A DNA stretch of 64,000 bases, taken from the IMG/VR virus record IMGVR_UViG_3300021185_001145, positions 1-64,000 of that record. One strand, written 5' to 3'. Positions within the stretch are counted from its first letter, which is position 1, and every line of letters begins with the position of its first letter. The stretch comes from a virus. The notes under the pieces were generated by a model, which saw nothing but the letters and a program-made list of their open reading frames with translations, was not told the origin of the DNA and searched no databases. The position numbers and the translations under genes were made by a program. Shown here one piece after another: positions 3,691 to 12,891 of this stretch.

Positions 3691-4356
3691 TTAAGCAACG
3701 TAGGTTGAAGCAGATTCCGTAGTGATAAAGTAAGTGACTTTACTACCAGTCCATCGGCTGATACCCTTTGAGGTGATTTCAACTTGATAGTCACCAGAAA
3801 TCATTTTCAGATTTTCTGTTCGGAATATCATGTTGAAAGTACCAGTTGCCTCAGCATCAACCTCAACATCAAACGTATTCGAAGTAGAGTTTTTACTGTC
3901 ATAGGCTGTCAATGTAATGTTACCACCATTACCGACAACAGCAACTTCTGGCGCTTGCAGAATAGATGCCGCTCTTAGAACCTCAGCAATTTGTGCTTGA
4001 GATACTTTGAAAGAAATTTCTGCACTCTCTAATAGAGGTGAAAGGTCTTTATCTGGAGGTGTGACAATCATTGTTTTGTCGGTGTAATAGTATGTTGATT
4101 TGTTCTTACCTGAAGAAACAACAACAGAGTTTTCACCAAACTCAAAATCTGGGTTTTCAAACAACGAGATTGTTGCAATAAATTGGTTCAAGTCATAAAT
4201 TGCAAATGGAGTATCAAAGGATTCTGAGACATTTGCTTCTGCCAGAATATTCTTTTGACTGCTCACAGTTCGTAGCGTATCACCATCAACGGCAATGCCA
4301 GTATTGATAGTAGAAAAGTTCTTCAATACGCTCAAGGTATCATTACTAATTTTCAT
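3691..4356 (-). CDS. gp45: Sliding clamp
   Basis: MKISNDTLSVLKNFSTIN...FAIYDLNQF...ENLKMISGDY; synteny. Confidence 0.95.
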   Translation of the reverse strand: MKISNDTLSVLKNFSTINTGIAVDGDTLRTVSSQKNILAEANVSESFDTPFAIYDLNQFIATISLFENPDFEFGENSVVVSSGKNKSTYYYTDKTMIVTPPDKDLSPLLESAEISFKVSQAQIAEVLRAASILQAPEVAVVGNGGNITLTAYDSKNSTSNTFDVEVDAEATGTFNMIFRTENLKMISGDYQVEITSKGISRWTGSKVTYFITTESASTYVA

Positions 4357-4787
4357 TCGGTTTCTCCATTTAATATATTATCAGCATTTGCTAGTGTCAT
4401 ATGTATCCACTTAGCACATTCTTTTGCGGTCATTGCATGTTCATCAACAGCAGGCATTCTATCATCTTGACCAATACCTCTAATCACAGATGCACTAAGC
4501 ATCATTGCAGAGGACATAATCAAGGCAACATGGGGTAGACCACTACCACCTTCGCCGTCATCGTAATTACGACCACGTTCGAAATCTTCAATATGTCTTT
4601 TCAGACTGTCAATCATTTGCTGGTAGGGCAGACCCTTTTCCCAGTTTCGATTATCGTATTTGTTTGCACCATATTCAAGTGCCGCGGCACCAGCCGCTAA
4701 CGCCTCTAAAGGCAACTGTCGAAAGTAAGGAACACCAATCGCTTCTCGCATTGCGCCAGTCTCTGATGTTTTCCAATTTTTTGTCAT
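4353..4787 (-). CDS. dATP/dGTP diphosphohydrolase-like protein (DUF5664 family)
   Basis: ETGAMRE...ALEYGANKYDNRNWEKGLPY...DSLKRHI...D..SGLPHVA matches the GAxKYxxxNWxKG...SxxRH...SGLPH pattern of this family. Confidence 0.75.
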   Translation of the reverse strand: MTKNWKTSETGAMREAIGVPYFRQLPLEALAAGAAALEYGANKYDNRNWEKGLPYQQMIDSLKRHIEDFERGRNYDDGEGGSGLPHVALIMSSAMMLSASVIRGIGQDDRMPAVDEHAMTAKECAKWIHMTLANADNILNGETE

Positions 4788-4811
4788 CTCATCTCCTTAA
4801 ATAATATAGCC

Positions 4812-4840
4812 ATAATAACAGGTAAAGGGAGGAATGTCAA
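4812..4840 (-). promoter_or_regulatory. Sigma70-type early promoter for the diphosphohydrolase-gp45-44-62-regA operon
   Basis: TTGACA-17 nt-TATTAT with extended TGn; the -35 lies inside an imperfect inverted repeat (~4825-4856). Confidence 0.8.
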
Positions 4841-4871
4841 GTGACAAACCCCCCTTGCGCCGCCCTCCGAA

Positions 4872-6047
4872 TTAGAATGGTGCATAATCGTCTTTTGTTT
4901 CAGGCGCAGTCTCGCCTTCTTCGGTTGTTGAAACAATCGCCTCAGCATCTACTTTGGTGTAGAGGTCTAGGAATGAAGTTTTGGTTTCTTCATCAAAGCG
5001 GTTCACACAAAGTTCAATTGCTTTCATCTTCTCACCGAAGATAGCGTAGGCTTGGGCAATGTGAACCAGACGGCGAGTGGCGATAATCTCATCAACACCA
5101 CCTTCGTAAAATGTTTTACGAATGATATCTGCCCAGTCAACCAACTTGCCGATGAACCCGTCATCTTCAATCTTCAGAGACTTGAACACTTTGCCGAGAA
5201 TTTTTTTCTCAACTGAGGTGCTTGCATACTCTTGCTCAACAGTAATTGGGAAACGCTCAAGGAACGCTTCATCAAGGATTTGAGCGGCGATGAAACGACC
5301 GTCATCAGAACCTTTACCTTTAGTGTTAGCAGTGGCAACAACGTTGAAACCAGGTGCTGGTTCAACAATCTCACCAGTCTTTTTGTTGATGTAAGGCTTG
5401 CCTTCCATGATTGCTTGAATTGCAAGCAACTTGTTAGAACCACGGTCAATCTCATCAAGAACAAGAACAGCACCACGGCGCATCGCATTCAGAACAGGAC
5501 CTTCACGATAGACAACGTTACCGTTGACTAGTGTATTGCCACCAATCAAATCATCTTCATCAGTCTCAATTGAAACAGACACTTTAATCATCTCACGGTT
5601 TGAAGCCGCACAAGCCTGTTCGACCATGAACGTTTTACCGTTACCAGATAGACCAGTCACCATGACAGGATAGAACATTTTAGAAACAAGAATGTTTTTC
5701 AAATCATTGAAGAACCCGAAAGGCACATAAAGCGCATCTTTGGCAGGGACAAAATTTTCTGAAATAGTCTGGGTCATAGTCACAGGTTTCATCGGGATGA
5801 CTTGAGCAACAGCCATAGCAGGTGCTTCAACAGCAGGCGCTACAGTCTGAGCGGTGATAGCATCAGCGGTAGGCAGACGATACTGACCACGACCAATACG
5901 AAATTCAGGTTTAGTAAAAATAAAGCGTGGGCGCTTGGCACCCATCTCTTCGGCGAGGTCGCAAATTTCTTGCTTGGTCACAACAGGACCAAACTTTGCA
6001 ACAGCGGCTTCAACGAAGGAATTCTGTTCAGTTGTCATTTTCATCAT
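4872..6047 (-). CDS. cobS: MoxR-type AAA+ ATPase (annotated 'CobS' in T4-like phages)
   Basis: Walker A GLSGNGKT, TDEDDLIGG, Walker B VLVLDEID, ATANTKGKG, LDEAFLERF, IATRRLV. Confidence 0.88.
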   Translation of the reverse strand: MMKMTTEQNSFVEAAVAKFGPVVTKQEICDLAEEMGAKRPRFIFTKPEFRIGRGQYRLPTADAITAQTVAPAVEAPAMAVAQVIPMKPVTMTQTISENFVPAKDALYVPFGFFNDLKNILVSKMFYPVMVTGLSGNGKTFMVEQACAASNREMIKVSVSIETDEDDLIGGNTLVNGNVVYREGPVLNAMRRGAVLVLDEIDRGSNKLLAIQAIMEGKPYINKKTGEIVEPAPGFNVVATANTKGKGSDDGRFIAAQILDEAFLERFPITVEQEYASTSVEKKILGKVFKSLKIEDDGFIGKLVDWADIIRKTFYEGGVDEIIATRRLVHIAQAYAIFGEKMKAIELCVNRFDEETKTSFLDLYTKVDAEAIVSTTEEGETAPETKDDYAPF

Positions 6048-6109
6048 AATATAGCCTCATTAGAGTTTTCACAAATCGGGGAGAACACTTTCGCCCCATC
6101 AACATATAC

Positions 6110-6138
6110 ATTATAGGTGGTTTTGCCTAGAATGTCAA
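6110..6138 (-). promoter_or_regulatory. Consensus sigma70 early promoter for cobS
   Basis: Perfect TTGACA-17-TATAAT. Confidence 0.9.
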
Positions 6139-6186
6139 GGATTATTTTGGTTTATTTTGGTTTATTTCGTGGTTTTTTTGGTTTAT
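6139..6186 (-). repeat. ~10-bp phased A-tract repeats (CCAAAATAAA-like), probable UP element
   Basis: AAATAAACCAAAATAAACCAAAATAATCC directly upstream of TTGACA; the same motif occurs at 8608-8625, 8696-8728 and 53956-53977. Confidence 0.75.
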
Positions 6187-6309
6187 GTGAGAAGTGACTA
6201 TATCAAGCATCATTTTTGTCGCTTCGATTTGGTCTCGATTGCCATTTCTCACAGCCATCATATAGTTTTCTTGCGCCATTTTGATATCATTATCAGTAAC
6301 ATCAATCAC
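6142..6309 (-). CDS. Small hypothetical protein (55 aa), not in the ORF track
   Basis: GTG start overlaps the cobT TGA stop (GTGA) with GGAG upstream; MIDVTDNDIKMAQENYMMAVRNGNRDQIEATKMMLDIVTSHINQKNHEINQNKPK*. Confidence 0.55.
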   Translation of the reverse strand: MIDVTDNDIKMAQENYMMAVRNGNRDQIEATKMMLDIVTSHINQKNHEINQNKPK

Positions 6310-8546
6310 GCCGCAATCTCCATCAGACGGTTTAGCAATACACGGTTTGCTGTTTTGCTCTTAGAGTTTTTCATAAACGCTGTTTTCAATCGTGCTTTTG
6401 AAGCACCAGCATCAACATCTAACCCAGTGTCAGTGGTTGTCATATCATCACCACCAGGGATTAAGAAGTATGACTGGTAGCCAGCATTGTTCACTTCAAG
6501 GAACTTTTTAGAACGAATGCTTTTCACAACGTCTTGGTCGTAAATGCCGTAACGTGCCGCTTGACCACGAATTTCACGAGGACGATTGTCCATGATGAAG
6601 AACCCGATAGTGTTGACACTGTGGCGGTCGCCAATCATTTCGATTAGTGTATTAGTAACTGAGCGATTTTTCACAGTGTATTGTTGCTTGGTCACAGTAT
6701 CTTGGATGACAGTTGTTTTGCGGTAGCCACCGACATAAACACCAGTTTCACGTTTTTCAGTATCACCATCATACTGAACAACTGCATTACATGCGTGGCT
6801 TTCACCGTCAGTCAGGACAACCAAGTTCGCAACTTGAACACGGGTGCGCTCACGGAACTTTTTGATAACATCAGGCATCAGGGTCAATGCATCATCAAGC
6901 GGAGTGCCGCCCAATTGCAAGGCTTGTGGAATATCAAAACGATAGTAACGACCGTTTGCGAGACATTCACGCATTGCCAACATACCCTTACATGCATCAT
7001 TGAATTCTGTCAATTTCATTTCACTGTTGAACAGTGTCATTAAAGACACCTGACGGTCAGAAGGAATTAAAGTACCCACTGGCTGAGACAGCAAATAATC
7101 TTTTTTGATTTTCTGTTTGGCACGGATTTCAAGGCGCTTCATCTCATTACCATCACGATAATAAGTATCCGCAGAGTAGTGGTCAGAGAAAGCATAAACT
7201 TCAAAAGGGATTTTTACTTTCTTGCAGAACATTACAAGGTTCAACAACTGGTCGATAGTCGCCGCCATGTTGCCAGCCATAGAACCAGACCAATCAAGTA
7301 ACATACTGAAACCGTGGTTCTTACCGCCAGTGACAGTAGTAACACGCTTAAACAGGTCATCATTATACTTGTATGAATAGATTTTTGACATATCAAGTTG
7401 ACCAGTTTTAGCAGTTGACGCCCGCTTGAATTCATCAGCCTTTTTCTTCAGTTCGAATTCTTTAACCATGTAGTTCACAACCTTCTGGTTGCTTTTACGC
7501 CACTCAGTCCATTTCGCATCAACTTCAGCCTCAACAGCGGCAGAGGTAAACATTTGTTTGTACTGAGAATTGATTTCACTGAAAGGCACGATAAAATCAT
7601 CAGACTTGAGAGTACCAAGAGTAAGATATTCAAACTCTTGACCACCCTGCTTCATCAGAGTACCTTCATTAGAGCGGAACGCCGCATCAGTCTGGCTTTC
7701 GATTAATTCTTCAGGAGACGAAGGCGTATCATCAATTTCTTCATCATCATAATCGTCATAATCATCATCCTCATAGTCACCAGAACCAGAAGTATCAGTA
7801 TCGTCATCGTCACCATCTTCATCAGAAGCAGTGCCTTTGCCACTTTCGAATTGCTCACCTTCTTCATCATTATCATCAGAACCGTCGGTGTCAGTACCTT
7901 CATTGTCTTGGTCATCATCATCAGAATTGTCACCAGAAGCGCCAGAAAGCAATTCTTCTACTTTCTCTTCCATCTCTTGTTCAGCCTGTTCAATTTGCTG
8001 ACCATAGAGGTCTTGAGAAATCTGCATAACATCTTCAAATGTCTCAGCGGCTTCAATCTTCTGAACCCACTCTGCTTCTTCACCTTCGAACTTGAGGTTC
8101 ACAAGAGTACCTAGTTTGAAGTGAAGATTAAGACGGTCAATGAACGCCATTTCAGTAATGTCTTTACCAGCAATACCGAAGAAATCACGCTCAAGTAATT
8201 CAGCGTAACCTTCACGATATGCCTTTGTAAGACCTGGGTATTTTGCTTTGATTTTCTTCTCAATCCGAGCGTCTTCTACAATGTTCACAAAACCTTTGAA
8301 GGCTGGACCACCAGTAGAGACTGCATCATGCCAACCCGCTTCTGGTGTCCAGAGAGCGTGACCGACTTCATGGCTTGTCATCAAATCATAGAGATTGACA
8401 CTCAAACCATCTTTAAGATTGGGAAGGGTGAGAACACGGTTCTTTACGTCAAAAGATGCAGTCGGCACGTTTTGATGCTGAACAGTTAAGTTCTCTGTCG
8501 CCATCAGTTTGGCGAGTTGGGACTTTGTATTTGCTATCTTATTCAT
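6306..8546 (-). CDS. Metallopeptidase-like (HExxH) plus acidic linker plus VWA-domain protein ('CobT'-like partner of the AAA+)
   Basis: HEVGHALWT and NIVEDARIE; Asp/Glu-rich linker; MIDAS LLDWSGSM, GGTPL, LTDGES. Start moved to ATG 8546 because the track start at 8567 sits almost on the predicted +1. Confidence 0.85.
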   Translation of the reverse strand: MNKIANTKSQLAKLMATENLTVQHQNVPTASFDVKNRVLTLPNLKDGLSVNLYDLMTSHEVGHALWTPEAGWHDAVSTGGPAFKGFVNIVEDARIEKKIKAKYPGLTKAYREGYAELLERDFFGIAGKDITEMAFIDRLNLHFKLGTLVNLKFEGEEAEWVQKIEAAETFEDVMQISQDLYGQQIEQAEQEMEEKVEELLSGASGDNSDDDDQDNEGTDTDGSDDNDEEGEQFESGKGTASDEDGDDDDTDTSGSGDYEDDDYDDYDDEEIDDTPSSPEELIESQTDAAFRSNEGTLMKQGGQEFEYLTLGTLKSDDFIVPFSEINSQYKQMFTSAAVEAEVDAKWTEWRKSNQKVVNYMVKEFELKKKADEFKRASTAKTGQLDMSKIYSYKYNDDLFKRVTTVTGGKNHGFSMLLDWSGSMAGNMAATIDQLLNLVMFCKKVKIPFEVYAFSDHYSADTYYRDGNEMKRLEIRAKQKIKKDYLLSQPVGTLIPSDRQVSLMTLFNSEMKLTEFNDACKGMLAMRECLANGRYYRFDIPQALQLGGTPLDDALTLMPDVIKKFRERTRVQVANLVVLTDGESHACNAVVQYDGDTEKRETGVYVGGYRKTTVIQDTVTKQQYTVKNRSVTNTLIEMIGDRHSVNTIGFFIMDNRPREIRGQAARYGIYDQDVVKSIRSKKFLEVNNAGYQSYFLIPGGDDMTTTDTGLDVDAGASKARLKTAFMKNSKSKTANRVLLNRLMEIAA

Positions 8547-8578
8547 AATGTATCTCGCTTTTCTCACTCTATATATGC

Positions 8579-8695: not shown

Positions 8696-8727
8696 GGGTT
8701 AATTTGGTTTATTTTGGATTATTTTGG

Positions 8728-9408
8728 TTATTTTATAGCAATCGCACCCACAAACAGATGATTTTGCCAAAATGTCTGAACACTGCTAAAACCAGCATAT
8801 TCAAGCATTTCATTCAATTCAGACCATGTATTTGGCTTTAACATGTTGCGTAACGTCTGTTCTTTGTTCATAATATCTTCTGCGTTGAAACTCTCACGCT
8901 TATGGTCATAGAACATGAATGTCAGTATATCTTGCACTTTAGGAGAGCAAGAATATGTCTTCTCTGCAAAGATAAACGCACCACCCGGATTGAGTGCTTC
9001 ATATACGTTATTCAACACTTCTTGTCTATCTTTGCGTGGCATGAACTGTAGTGTAAAGATTGAAGTGACTAAAGACGCATTGTGCATATGAACATCACGC
9101 ACATCTTCGAAACGCAATTCTAGGTCGTCAACTTCATGCTTACGCATTCTCTCATCCATCGCTTCTTTGAAGCCATCTGCCATTTCAAAACCGACATAAT
9201 GAGCATGTGGCGCAAATGTATTTTGCTCAATCATTGCACCTAGTGTCTTGCCTGTAGAACAACCCAAATCATATACGTTTGTATCGTCCTCAACAAAATA
9301 TTTTGACATCTTAACAATGTCATCGTGTAGTACAGAATACCCACGAATTGATTGGTCTATGTGATTATCGAAACCCTCTTCACGGTGTGCAAAAGTAAAA
9401 TCAGCCAT
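8728..9408 (-). CDS. cmoA: CmoA-like carboxy-S-adenosylmethionine synthase (class I SAM fold)
   Basis: FTF...FDNHIDQSIRGY...NVYDLGCSTG...DVRDV...NASLVTSIFTLQF...LNPGGAFIFAEK is colinear with E. coli CmoA as recalled (WTFD...FPDMIQRSVPGY...QVYDLGCSLG...NASMVVLNFTLQF...LNPGGALVLSEK). Confidence 0.85.
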   Translation of the reverse strand: MADFTFAHREEGFDNHIDQSIRGYSVLHDDIVKMSKYFVEDDTNVYDLGCSTGKTLGAMIEQNTFAPHAHYVGFEMADGFKEAMDERMRKHEVDDLELRFEDVRDVHMHNASLVTSIFTLQFMPRKDRQEVLNNVYEALNPGGAFIFAEKTYSCSPKVQDILTFMFYDHKRESFNAEDIMNKEQTLRNMLKPNTWSELNEMLEYAGFSSVQTFWQNHLFVGAIAIK

Positions 9409-10540
9409 TATTGTATCCCTTCAAAACGTTTTCATAAATGCTAGTTGCAACTGCTTTATACATCAATGGAGCAACTGCACGACCAAGACGCTCTACCTGA
9501 GCATCAAATTCACCTGTCAAAATAAAGTCTTCTGGGAAACCCATCAGACGTTTACACTCTTTAATAGTCAACTTACGATTTGCTTCTGGGTGAAATACAC
9601 CAGACATTCCTCGCTTCTGACCTTGCTGAGTTAGTGTTGGAGATGGCATATCTGGACAAGGGCGTATCATGTTGAAACAACTTGCCTTTGGATTCCATTC
9701 TCTAAACTGTGGGTCACTCGGTTTTGTATGTTTCTTTGGGTTGAACGGAAGAGGTGTGATAAACTTCTTCTGATATGAACCCTCAACAAAATCAAGTAAC
9801 ATCTGAACTTCTTCTTCATCATTCTCAATATCTGCTAGTGCTTCACGCATTGAAATATGCTTGTCGATTGTAGGGGCAGGAAAGATGTTATGCAAGTTTA
9901 AAAAAGACAAACCAACTTTATCTGCTACATCTTCACGCACACAAATAAAGATTGTACGTTCTCTTGCTTGAGGTACGCCATAGTTTGCACCATTCAAAAC
10001 TTCGTATGTAACATTGTAACCAATTGCCTCAAACGCATTGATAAACGCATTCAGTTTACTTTTTGCTTCACCAAATGTGATACCCTTGACGTTCTCTGCA
10101 ACAATTACTTTCGGTTGAATACCTTCTGCAATACGAATGAATTCATAGAACAAATCTTCGATTGCAACTTGCTTCTTTCCGTCAGAGTAACTTTTCTCTT
10201 TACCCCAACCTTTTTCTCGCTTACCAGCAACGGAGAAAGCAGAACAAGGGGGAGACCCATCAAGTATGTCGAGTTCGCCCTTTTGTACTCCTGCCATGCT
10301 AAGGAAGTCTTCTGCGCTGTATTTCTTAATGTCATCAACTAGAACTTTCGTATCGGGAAAGTTTGCAGTGTATGTTTCAACAGCGGCTTCTACAAACTCA
10401 TTAATCAGTAATATGTCTGAACCTGCTAGACGATACCCCAATGAAGAACCGCCACCACCAGCAAAACAACTGATAGTAGTGAACTTCTTTTGAGATGAAA
10501 GTGCTTTCACATCATCAACATTATATTTTTCATATCTCAT
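9401..10540 (-). CDS. DNA cytosine-C5 methyltransferase-family enzyme, predicted carboxymethyltransferase
   Basis: Motif I FAGGGG, IV GSPPCSAFS, VI ENVKG, VIII QARER, IX RKLTIKECKRLMGFP, X GRAV (canonical GN[A/S]V). Overlaps the cmoA start by 8 nt. Confidence 0.92.
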   Translation of the reverse strand: MRYEKYNVDDVKALSSQKKFTTISCFAGGGGSSLGYRLAGSDILLINEFVEAAVETYTANFPDTKVLVDDIKKYSAEDFLSMAGVQKGELDILDGSPPCSAFSVAGKREKGWGKEKSYSDGKKQVAIEDLFYEFIRIAEGIQPKVIVAENVKGITFGEAKSKLNAFINAFEAIGYNVTYEVLNGANYGVPQARERTIFICVREDVADKVGLSFLNLHNIFPAPTIDKHISMREALADIENDEEEVQMLLDFVEGSYQKKFITPLPFNPKKHTKPSDPQFREWNPKASCFNMIRPCPDMPSPTLTQQGQKRGMSGVFHPEANRKLTIKECKRLMGFPEDFILTGEFDAQVERLGRAVAPLMYKAVATSIYENVLKGYNNG

Positions 10541-10572
10541 ATTTTATACACTTTTCTACGGTTATTTAAAGT

Positions 10573-10601
10573 ATAGTAACACACTTTTCTGCGGTTGTCA
10601 A
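10573..10601 (-). promoter_or_regulatory. Sigma70-type promoter for the MTase-cmoA pair
   Basis: TTGACA-17-TACTAT with extended TGn; the -35 overlaps the upstream gene's TGA. Confidence 0.8.
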
Positions 10602-11410
10602 GCAAAAAGTGAAGGAGTTGCAGAATAATTTACATAGTCTCTAACCAAGTCCATGGTTCTACCCCTATTGCGATAGTTCAATTCTTTGTCTTCAAGCAAC
10701 TGTTCGAAATACTCAGGAATACCAGCAACCAACTGTAGATTAGCATGTTTACGCTTTTTGGGTAGTTTTTCGAATTCTTCATATGCTTCGATAATTGGTG
10801 CTTTCTGATATGGCTTGTTAAAGAAATCGTGGTCGTACCGCATCATCCACTCTTTCACACTTTCACGCACATAAGGTGCGACTAAGTTCGCTTCTATCTC
10901 TTCACACAACTGTTCTTGCTGTAGAATGCCAGCAGGATTCTCTGCACCAAAGTAATCATTGCGAAACTTATCAAACAACTCTTTCGTATGCTTGAAGTGA
11001 ATGTTTGCACGTTTTGATACACCATACCAACCATCTGCGGCAACACCAGACAATACATGCTTCTCTTTAATATGAGGATAAACATAAAGAAACGGGAATG
11101 TACATTCTACATGTGTCTTCTTCTTACAGTCATAGTAACGCATCAGACGCAAGAAATCATCTTTCACATTATTGACTGGTACATCAATCTCATGGTGATT
11201 CCAACCATATATCTCAGCCGCTTCTTTCGCCGCTAAACTATCGACTGTTTCTTGACCATTCACATACATCGTATATGTGTGTACGTTTTTTCCTAAACGC
11301 ATTGCAGAAAATGCACAAGTCAAACTATCGACACCACCAGACATTAAAACAGCAACGTCTTTTCCAGGTGCTTCATCTTCTACTATTTTTGTTATTAAAT
11401 CATCAATCAT
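10598..11410 (-). CDS. Asparagine-synthetase-like PP-loop ATP-dependent amide ligase lacking the glutaminase domain
   Basis: VAVLMSGGVDS (PP-loop) and VLSGVAADGWYG (cf. AsnB VLSGEGADELFGGY); only 270 aa, with no N-terminal Ntn domain. Confidence 0.82.
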   Translation of the reverse strand: MIDDLITKIVEDEAPGKDVAVLMSGGVDSLTCAFSAMRLGKNVHTYTMYVNGQETVDSLAAKEAAEIYGWNHHEIDVPVNNVKDDFLRLMRYYDCKKKTHVECTFPFLYVYPHIKEKHVLSGVAADGWYGVSKRANIHFKHTKELFDKFRNDYFGAENPAGILQQEQLCEEIEANLVAPYVRESVKEWMMRYDHDFFNKPYQKAPIIEAYEEFEKLPKKRKHANLQLVAGIPEYFEQLLEDKELNYRNRGRTMDLVRDYVNYSATPSLFA

Positions 11411-11814
11411 TTTATTTTACTTACTTGTACGCCACTACGCAATAAGAACTGAATGCCCTCATCTGTCTTGTAGTGGTCTCTATAATATACAGTATCAATA
11501 CCTGCTTGATATATCAACTTAGCACAGTCAATGCATGGTGATGCTGTGCAGAATAAAATTGCGTCATCTGCGCTATCGTTTCCTCTTGCAATCTTTGTAA
11601 TTGCATTTGCTTCTGCATGTAGCACTTCTTTTTTTGTGTTACCATCTTCATCTTCACATACATTAGACCAACCAGCAGGCATACCGTTGTATCCAATAGA
11701 AATAATTCTATCGTCTTTCACAACAACACAACCCACTTTAAGACGTTCCGCAGAAGATAACTGTGCGTACACTTCTGCGGCGTCCATATGCGCTTTAATG
11801 AATTTGCTCTTCAC
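11407..11814 (-). CDS. cd: dCMP deaminase
   Basis: KVGCVVVK..RIISIGYNG, HAEANAI, PCIDC zinc motifs. Probable start is GTG at 11814 (GAGG upstream) rather than 11841. Confidence 0.93.
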   Translation of the reverse strand: MKSKFIKAHMDAAEVYAQLSSAERLKVGCVVVKDDRIISIGYNGMPAGWSNVCEDEDGNTKKEVLHAEANAITKIARGNDSADDAILFCTASPCIDCAKLIYQAGIDTVYYRDHYKTDEGIQFLLRSGVQVSKIK

Positions 11815-12196
11815 TATCTGCGCCCTCTTCTGCATCTTCAATCTGCATTTGCTCTAATGCCTCTGCTGGCATTTCTTCATACAACTCTTGGTTCTTATGC
11901 CAGACGTTGAATACGCTTTGAACATCTTCTTCACGGTGCGTTGTGGAATCAGCAAGTTCATCGTATACTTTTTTCTCATACTCACCGAACTTTGGGTTCA
12001 TCCACATGTGAATATCTTCGCCAGTTGCCATATCAGTTACTTCAACGAATACGACTTCTTGTGTCTCTAAAACGAACACTGCGGTCATTGCGTCATCGAA
12101 CTGAAGAACCCAGGAATCACCAAAGTCTTCAAATAAGAATGGTCCGCCTTCGACAATGCGTAGACCTGTTGCTTCAATTAGTTGTTGAAAATTCAT
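11795..12196 (-). CDS. Hypothetical acidic protein
   Basis: 133-aa ORF in frame with the operon, GGAG SD; no motif recognised. Confidence 0.75.
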   Translation of the reverse strand: MNFQQLIEATGLRIVEGGPFLFEDFGDSWVLQFDDAMTAVFVLETQEVVFVEVTDMATGEDIHMWMNPKFGEYEKKVYDELADSTTHREEDVQSVFNVWHKNQELYEEMPAEALEQMQIEDAEEGADSEEQIH

Positions 12197-12207
12197 AATA
12201 TCTCTCC

Positions 12208-12891
12208 TTAAATAAGTCTATGAATAGCGTACTGTTTACCAAGACGCTTGTTTCGTTTTTTCATTGCCATGTGTTTCTGTAAAGGTGAAACGAACTTCCA
12301 GAAAGGTTTACCTCTACTGAGTGCATAATTCTGAATGTAGTATCTACTCCATTCGTGTTGTACTCTTTCTCTATGCTCCTGATTAGAAACATCATAATAG
12401 ATAATGTCTGCAAATACTGGACGCTCAATATTCAAATACAACGCAGGATAACTTGCAGAAATCTCTCTACCTTTATGACCCTCATCAGATAACGCTTTAA
12501 TTTTAGAATTGATGAATGTCTCATACTCTGGTTCATCATCTGCACGTTGTTCAACAGGTTTTGGGTTTACAATGATAAAGAAATCATAATTGACACCCAC
12601 TTGTGATGCATGAATTGATGGACCGCTTCTGTTCTTTGACATTCTGAACAATACTTCAGCGAGTAAAGATGCTTCCATAACAAAAACAAAACCATCTTCC
12701 ATTTTCAATACAGGTGGTTTATCAAAAGGGTAATGAGCGCATGTTGTAAATGGCTTCATATTCTTTTTATCCAAATCAGTCTTAAAAGAAAAATACTTCA
12801 TAAGTTTCTCTACGTCAGGAACTTGTTGAACACTCTTCATCATTTCAGCGACTTCTTTACGCTCTTCTTTTACTTGTTCTACTTCACTCAT
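12208..12891 (-). CDS. Peptide deformylase-fold protein with degenerate catalytic motifs
   Basis: GPSIHASQVG (cf. GxGxAAxQxG), FINSKI (cf. INPxI), EISASYP (cf. EGCLSxP), ERP, IQNYALSRG (cf. QHExDHLxG); coupled to gp46. Confidence 0.7.
   Translation of the reverse strand: MSEVEQVKEERKEVAEMMKSVQQVPDVEKLMKYFSFKTDLDKKNMKPFTTCAHYPFDKPPVLKMEDGFVFVMEASLLAEVLFRMSKNRSGPSIHASQVGVNYDFFIIVNPKPVEQRADDEPEYETFINSKIKALSDEGHKGREISASYPALYLNIERPVFADIIYYDVSNQEHRERVQHEWSRYYIQNYALSRGKPFWKFVSPLQKHMAMKKRNKRLGKQYAIHRLI

Follow-up and report, generated by a model that had tools for sequence, protein, structure and literature searches.

The question raised by this locus is whether a phage protein that resembles a cytosine C5 DNA methyltransferase transfers methyl groups at all. 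The locus lies in IMG/VR virus record IMGVR_UViG_3300021185_001145, of which positions 1 to 64,000 were analysed (64,000 nucleotides, hereafter the window), and the gene in question is an open reading frame (ORF) on the minus strand at 9401-10540 that encodes a 379-aa protein with the C5 DNA methyltransferase fold. A first-pass annotation of the same DNA had noticed that motif X of this protein reads GRAV, with arginine in place of the near-invariant asparagine, and had proposed that the arginine is a natural specificity switch from S-adenosylmethionine (SAM) to carboxy-S-adenosylmethionine (Cx-SAM). We find that the ORF very probably (at a probability of about 0.9) encodes an orthologue of CmoX, the Cx-SAM-dependent DNA cytosine C5-carboxymethyltransferase of phages. 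The arguments for this are its close relationship to a characterised enzyme, the position of the arginine, the genes on either side and the linkage of the arginine to cmoA across relatives.

The family assignment of the ORF was straightforward. Pfam PF00145 (C-5 cytosine DNA methylase) spans it (E 4.2e-59, profile positions 1-323 of 324), NCBIfam TIGR00675 gives 181 bits and so passes its cut-off of 100.65, and the intact frame shows motifs I, IV, VI, VIII, IX and X of the family consensus; its C-terminal part reads ...DAQVERLGRAVAPLMYKAV.... The closest solved structure is 8yf3_A, which phmmer matched over the full length (E 1.1e-111). This is SpCmoX of Synechococcus phage S-B43 (PDB 8YF3), which carboxymethylates C5 of cytosine at GC sites with Cx-SAM as donor (Yang et al., Nat Commun 2025, PMC12783734). 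The two proteins share the fold and, at 379 and 372 aa, are identical at 198 of 377 positions (53%; BLASTP E 2e-131), with Arg354 of the window protein opposite Arg350 of SpCmoX. Every contact and catalytic residue of SpCmoX named in that paper is kept in the window protein, including S95-C98 and R350 (S96-C99 and R354) and the adenine and ribose contacts F25, E47, F48 and D69 (F26, E48, F49 and D70). Motif IV (10241-10255, minus strand) is S96-P97-P98-C99-S100, in which Cys99 is the catalytic residue equivalent to SpCmoX C98 and HhaI C81. Two positions depart from the family canon: motif IV has Pro-Cys-Ser instead of Pro-Cys-Gln, and motif X has Gly-Arg instead of Gly-Asn. Both sequence features of the published CmoX census, the SPPC motif and Arg at the R350 position, are present; SPPC by itself does not discriminate, as Asn-, Met- and Leu-type relatives carry it too. 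Public collections give the three genes of the system generic names, namely 'DNA (cytosine-5)-methyltransferase 1' for CmoX, 'tRNA (cmo5U34)-methyltransferase' for CmoA and 'asparagine synthetase B' for CmoY.

The arginine itself can be placed by codon and by alignment. Counted from the start codon at 10540, motif X occupies 9473-9484 (minus strand) as G353-R354-A355-V356, with G353 at 9484-9482, R354 at 9481-9479, A355 at 9478-9476 and V356 at 9475-9473; the plus strand reads a-c-g at 9479-9481, giving the coding triplet CGT and hence Arg, so that translation and codon positions agree exactly with the first-pass reading. Arg354 stands at the motif-X Asn position. In phmmer, 'erlgravap' pairs with 'kmiGNAVpv' of M.HaeIII (1dct; whole-protein E 8.5e-26), and when only the last 80 residues were searched, DNMT1 chains were matched with 'hrqiGNAVPP' opposite 'verlgravap' (E 1.3e-07). 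The column of 8yf3 at R354 is also Arg, within 'tervGRmvpplm', and the surrounding stretch is ungapped. Comparison with M.HhaI and M.MpeI, which the first-pass annotation had suggested, was less decisive: the M.HhaI match is weak (E ~0.9), pairing fragment residues 21-63 with HhaI 270-312 over equal lengths and placing R354 (fragment residue 55) on N304 if ungapped, and the phmmer alignment to M.MpeI (4dkj) covers residues 89-226 only, so that the equivalence of Arg354 with M.MpeI N374 is taken from the papers. Seawater contigs over 9473-9484 from two runs (X1 and X15) have no letter different there; the nearest difference in X15, 9497 C>T, falls by arithmetic on the silent third position of Gln348.

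What an arginine at this position does has been established for SpCmoX. Crystallography and assays showed that R350 contacts the carboxymethyl group, that the wild type accepts Cx-SAM only and that R350N accepts neither cofactor (PMC12783734). In the same phage, CmoA makes Cx-SAM (kcat 2.33 per s), and CmoY, an asparagine-synthetase homologue, ligates glycine to yield 5-glycylcarboxymethylcytosine, which was found in S-B43 virion DNA (PMC12783734). The R-to-N exchange that the first-pass annotation had proposed as a check is therefore published for the 53%-identical enzyme, and no methyl transfer was regained. The proposal that the arginine goes with Cx-SAM use is upheld by this work, but 'switch' is too simple a word for it: since R350N is dead with both cofactors, the arginine is required, yet its reversion to Asn is not enough to bring methyl transfer back.

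Engineered enzymes point the same way. The idea that a basic residue here confers Cx-SAM use, drawn in the first-pass annotation from M.MpeI N374K, is borne out by PMC12015181, according to which M.MpeI N374K and M.MedI N377K gain carboxymethyl transfer, a salt bridge between Lys and the cofactor carboxylate being credited, and retain SAM methylation. The likeness to the window protein lies in the basic side chain that replaces the motif-X Asn and would pair with the Cx-SAM carboxylate; the differences are that the residue is Lys and not Arg and that these are CpG-specific bacterial enzymes which still methylate with SAM. The Discussion of PMC12783734 states that the CmoX Arg 'strikingly mirrors' M.MpeI N374K. 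The first-pass deduction was thus correct, yet the mechanism had already been published, with the N374K parallel made explicit. A more distant likeness is to CmoB, the carboxymethyltransferase of tRNA 5-hydroxyuridine, which uses CmoA-made Cx-SAM and in which an Arg is proposed to recognise the carboxymethyl group (PMC12783734), but which belongs to an unrelated methyltransferase family (PF08003) and acts on tRNA. No CmoB (PF08003) match was found in the 83.6-kb record, a weak negative given that the record is ~46% complete.

The genes flanking cmoX complete the set known from S-B43. Downstream, a cmoA homologue at 8728-9408 (minus strand) encodes a 226-aa predicted Cx-SAM synthase that is identical to SpCmoA at 122 of 228 positions (54%; BLASTP E 5e-87). 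The first 8 nt of this gene (9401-9408) are also the last 8 of cmoX, which bears out the adjacency reported in the first-pass annotation and by which the two genes are predicted to be translationally coupled. Upstream, a cmoY homologue at 10598-11410 (minus strand) encodes a 270-aa Asn-synthase-type ATP-dependent amide ligase without glutaminase, which is predicted to amidate 5-carboxymethylcytosine. It matches SpCmoY at 130 of 263 positions (49%; BLASTP E 8e-92) and PF00733 over residues 18-140 only (E 3e-15), with no match to a glutamine amidotransferase domain. The window thus carries a cmoY-cmoX-cmoA cassette that is orthologous, as judged by these alignments, to that of S-B43. All three partner genes are common to both phages, which are both T4-like, and the order differs, being A-Y-X in S-B43 (GenBank MN018232) and Y-X-A in the window, with cmoY upstream and cmoA downstream of cmoX. 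SpCmoX itself differs from the window enzyme in having GRMV rather than GRAV as motif X and in a variable region that is 34% identical. A dCMP deaminase gene (11407-11841, minus strand; PF00383, E 6e-23) shares its last 4 nt with the start of cmoY and is thereby coupled to the modification cassette. Within CmoA, the stretch at 8836-8875 (minus strand) reads N-K-E-Q-T-L-R-N-M-L, and SpCmoA has the same pattern, D-K-E-K-E-L-R-D-M-L, which marks it as a trait of the phage clade rather than a fault of this copy.

Is the motif-X Arg a peculiarity of single phages, and does it travel with cmoA? An HMMER scan of 1.84 billion cluster representatives returned 27,925 homologues at E <= 0.001, of which the best 150 were taken; 146 of these cover motif X. 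Among these representatives of 50% clusters, the motif-X residue is Arg in 105, Asn in 29, Leu in 5, Lys in 2, Met in 2 and Tyr, Gln or Asp in 1 each. Going by these sequences, the Arg type is a large, diverse subfamily and not a singleton. Linkage was sampled in 41 viral contigs retrieved with the window protein, 7 cultured-phage regions and 22 loci retrieved with a Lys-type query, which made 68 loci once 2 duplicates had been dropped; all were searched by tblastn with the window CmoX, CmoA and CmoY, and 10 of the 68 leave the motif uncovered. A CmoA homologue was present in 29 of the 32 Arg-type loci, the three without it lying on contigs of 4151, 4167 and 2543 nt, and in none of the 26 non-Arg loci (15 Asn, 9 Met, 1 Leu and 1 unclear). 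The co-occurrence of a Gly-Arg motif X with cmoA, which the first-pass annotation had proposed to test, was thus seen in this sample. Complete genomes of cultured phages agreed: a CmoA-like gene is present in all five Arg-type phages (S-B43, S-CRM01, Mcat8 weakly, TurkishDelight and Erwinia pEa_SNUABM_28), and whole-genome searches of the non-Arg phages Melnitz-3 and Flavobacterium FPSV-S2 found CmoA in 0 of 2. In pEa_SNUABM_28, cmoA lies 17 kb from the methyltransferase gene and was found only by the whole-genome search. On a larger scale, the published census, which drew on IMG/VR v4, lists 5,615 CmoX candidates with SPPC and Arg, and 4,257 CmoA on their contigs (PMC12783734).

The relatives gathered in this way show several further arrangements. 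In Erwinia phage pEa_SNUABM_28 (MZ443783.1, 5001-7043 of the fetched region) and ~40 related jumbo-phage records, the Arg-type methyltransferase is one 709-aa ORF that matches in two pieces; between them, precisely at the catalytic Cys (SPPC / C-K-G), stand ~356 additional residues that look like an intein. In Streptomyces phage TurkishDelight (NC_073473.1, 3326-8354 of the fetched region), two ParB-like genes accompany an Arg-type methyltransferase (GRAV) and a fusion ligase of glutamine amidotransferase and Asn synthase. The CmoA-like gene of this phage is distant (24% identity), and the layout fits the second ligase class of PMC12783734, for which the predicted amine is ammonia. Eight viral contigs and Flavobacterium phage FPSV-S2 form a clade in which motif IV is SPPC-S and Met replaces the motif-X Asn (G-M-S-V-P-P); no cmoA was found near its members, and no TET match by tblastn with a single Melnitz Tet_JBP query, which is a weak search. 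Two representatives, P0176 and P0263, have a natural motif-X Lys, the residue of the engineered carboxymethyltransferases. No Lys-type locus was met in the viral, metagenome and genome collections searched for Lys-type relatives, which returned only relatives at 26-58%.

We also contrasted the 105 Arg-type representatives with the 29 of the Asn type at each alignment column. After column 354 itself, the most discriminating position was column 100, directly after the catalytic Cys (Jensen-Shannon 0.94). Among 104 Arg-type representatives this residue is Ala in 54, Ser in 40, Lys in 4, Cys in 3, Thr in 2 and Val in 1, and Gln in none, against Gln in 21 of the 29 Asn-type representatives. The window protein has Ser100 and SpCmoX has Ser99 at the position of M.HhaI Gln82, and the alignment with M.HaeIII pairs 'sppcsafs' with 'GPPCQSWS'. 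In a study of M.HhaI (Lukinavicius et al., NAR 2012, PMC3526304), Gln82, Tyr254 and Asn304 were modelled together beside the transferable group, Q82A cut methylation ~16-fold, and the equivalents of Q82A/N304A in three enzymes admitted bulkier cofactors. The two positions enlarged by that steric engineering, Gln82 and Asn304, are exactly those that differ in the window protein (Ser100 and Arg354). The difference is that Ala opens space for synthetic propargylic cofactors (PMC3526304), and natural CmoX enzymes would accommodate a natural carboxylated cofactor by pairing a small residue at the Gln position with a charged one, Arg, at the Asn position. The main text of PMC12783734 does not mention the Gln82/Ser99 position, which its Fig. 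8e logo might show.

The missing motif-IV Gln could be the reason why R350N alone did not make SpCmoX a methyltransferase. We therefore put forward, tentatively and as a possibility that we rate at somewhat less than even odds, that a two-residue code may set the cofactor in this branch of phage C5 enzymes: Gln after the catalytic Cys with Asn at motif X would specify methyl transfer, and Ser or Ala with Arg would specify carboxymethyl transfer. If this were true, lineages would have toggled between cmoA-coupled carboxymethylation and SAM-dependent methylation, each time with an exchange of both residues and of the partner gene, and the window enzyme would regain methyl transfer only as an S100Q/R354N double mutant.

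A phage enzyme related to the window protein and lacking the arginine offers a natural contrast. The methylase of Melnitz-3 (MZ577098.1) is 43% identical to the window protein; its catalytic Cys is followed by Pro, and its motif X has Leu. In a quick maximum-likelihood tree (57 rows, LG+G4, columns 100 and 354 removed), it falls on a long branch inside a well-supported group (97) that otherwise consists of 15 Arg-type rows. The gene that overlaps its stop encodes a Tet_JBP dioxygenase (PF12851, E 3.6e-11; region 4010-6194 of the fetched locus). A tblastn search with this protein found no match in any other fetched locus, although a search with a single sequence is weak. Phage TETs act on 5-methylcytosine laid at GpC by partner C5 methyltransferases, and these TET-coupled enzymes vary (GpC, GpC[C/T] and other motifs), with GpC preference prevalent in related clades (Burke et al., PNAS 2021, PMC8256090). 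They belong to the same branch of phage C5 methyltransferases as the window protein and have the GpC preference in common with SpCmoX, and the GC preference of SpCmoX is consistent with inheritance from this branch. Melnitz-3 differs in its route, which would be to methylate and then oxidise rather than to carboxymethylate, and in having Leu at motif X and no cmoA genome-wide. It has the look of a methyl/TET branch surrounded by carboxymethyl lineages, and under the two-residue code it would be one case of a toggle (Pro, Leu, TET neighbour) inside the Arg-type group. Here the Arg is gone and the partner is one that needs a methyl group, which is consistent with the motif-X position reading out the choice of cofactor.

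These observations suggest how the enzyme of the window would work. It would retain the complete catalytic machinery of C5 methyltransferases, with a cofactor pocket shaped for Cx-SAM. Cys99 would attack C6 of a flipped-out cytosine, and the resulting C5 carbanion would take the transferable group from the cofactor, with Arg354 binding the carboxylate of the carboxymethyl group of Cx-SAM and Ser100, at the motif-IV Gln position, probably making room for that group. The coupled downstream cmoA would supply Cx-SAM from SAM and prephenate, and the upstream cmoY-type ligase would most likely turn 5-carboxymethylcytosine into an amide; the characterised homologue uses glycine for this. The predicted result is a restriction-resistant hypermodified cytosine in the phage DNA. 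Residue identities, alignments and gene linkage were determined here, orthology was assigned from them, and we infer the same activity for the window enzyme as for SpCmoX.

Several points weigh against this account and temper it. All function is transferred, by analogy, from an enzyme that is 53% identical, and the role given to Ser100 is drawn from co-variation and from the engineering of M.HhaI. The best NCBIfam model for the window CmoA is TIGR00740 CmoA (E 8.7e-36), but its 123.8 bits fall below the cut-off of 193.3, and NF011995 gives 102.4 bits against a cut-off of 285; these equivalog models are tuned to cellular CmoA. In the linkage sample, the search of non-Arg loci for cmoA extended over a flank of ~6 kb, plus the two whole genomes of Melnitz-3 and FPSV-S2. 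Descent also limits the linkage. On the tree, the Arg state is clustered far beyond shuffled labels (0 of 500 shuffles were as low), and it needs 5 changes, only 2 of which are forced by well-supported branches. This leaves 2 (well-supported branches) to 5 (all branches) independent pairs, none of them opposite, with a sign test p of 0.5. As the pairs are few and p is 0.5, we claim no significance for co-evolution of Arg and cmoA. An approximately unbiased test rejected a single Arg-type clade (p-AU 0.013), for a group defined post hoc, with long branches, on the quick LG+G4 tree.

Could the ORF instead encode an ordinary SAM-dependent 5-methylcytosine methyltransferase, in which the change from Asn to Arg is neutral and cmoA serves another end such as tRNA modification or SAM depletion? 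The generic C5-methyltransferase models that it passes and the database name 'DNA (cytosine-5)-methyltransferase 1' would suit such an enzyme, and M.MedI N377K, which still uses SAM (PMC12015181), indicates that a basic residue alone does not exclude SAM. SpCmoX, however, shares both the Arg and the Ser that follows the catalytic Cys, and it is Cx-SAM-only (PMC12783734). Moreover, Arg tracks cmoA (29/32 against 0/26 loci), no CmoB to use Cx-SAM on tRNA was found in the 83.6-kb, ~46% complete record, and the motif-IV Gln that is important for methyl transfer by M.HhaI (PMC3526304) is missing. We consider a plain methyltransferase very improbable. Still a little less credible is a decayed, non-catalytic homologue that is kept for DNA binding or has no function. 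The absence of the canonical motif-X Asn and motif-IV Gln is all that might be cited for it, and nothing specific speaks in its favour, whereas the ORF is intact, its motifs are recognisable, and it retains the catalytic Cys together with all the named cofactor contacts. In addition, 14 marine runs belonging to 13 studies contain near-identical copies, and full length is kept in a 32-member 90% cluster and in hundreds of relatives.

A carboxymethyltransferase that yields another product than that of S-B43, through a non-GC target, a non-glycine amine for CmoY or both, is a more serious alternative, although we regard it as rather unlikely. Between motifs VIII and IX, in the putative target recognition region, the window protein shares 32 of 94 residues with SpCmoX (34%), compared with 131 of 205 (64%) in the N-terminal core, a point that also counts against a full transfer of function, and with 34% identity in the target-reading region GC specificity cannot be assumed. 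CmoY is 49% identical, the other CmoX specificities and the amines of the other ligase clusters remain to be determined according to PMC12783734, and related TET-coupled methyltransferases vary in motif (PMC8256090). The same study describes GpC preference as prevalent in related phage C5-methyltransferase clades, which argues for a shared target. The observed/expected ratio of the GC dinucleotide in the window, 1.03, is uninformative on avoidance of GC sites. For the ORF as such, carboxymethyl transfer from Cx-SAM is the preferred reading, with target and amine as its less certain parts.

A reading of one residue in raw sequence was enough to deduce the change of cofactor. By December 2025 it was already known that natural 5-carboxymethylcytosine is written by CmoX with phage-made carboxy-SAM and then amidated by CmoY. 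New here are an abundant uncultured marine T4-like phage lineage with the full three-gene set, a small independent re-test of the linkage between Arg and cmoA that was clean in direction, the loss of the motif-IV Gln in every sampled Arg-type enzyme, and the Melnitz contrast. Some sequencing methods already employ the engineered Lys variants, and the Gln loss could help in designing better carboxymethyltransferases for them.

The window belongs to an 83,590-base virus record that is rated ~46% complete and contains a single PF00145 gene. Megablast with 8700-11900 matched none of 50,697 phage records, and the virus is known only from metagenomes. Its gp46-like protein is 48-51% identical to homologues of a Stenotrophomonas phage, the OM43 phage Melnitz and cyanomyoviruses, the nearest cultured relatives. 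By these matches the source is a marine T4-like phage, and its gp46 relatives do not single out a cyanobacterium as the host. Near-identical copies of 8700-11500 were present in the 14 runs mentioned above, which are labelled marine, seawater or viral metagenome and one of which is possibly the source sample. The 90% cluster of the window CmoX has its 32 members at full length, as are the hundreds of relatives at 70-99%. In two libraries labelled metatranscriptomic, assembled contigs agree with parts of cmoX and cmoA at 95-100%, outside 9473-9484; DNA carry-over is possible, and these matches are no evidence of transcription, nor do the gaps speak for its absence.

Two further loci lie close to the cassette on the same strand. 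A 227-aa protein at 12208-12891 (minus strand) has only a weak match to peptide deformylase (PF01327, E 5.9e-11, residues 77-205). On the other side of the cassette, 4872-8567 (minus strand) encodes a 391-aa AAA_5 ATPase and, after it, a 753-aa protein that includes a long Asp/Glu-rich stretch and matches no Pfam domain with confidence, a pair that we take to be reminiscent of the CobS/CobT-like pairs of marine phages.

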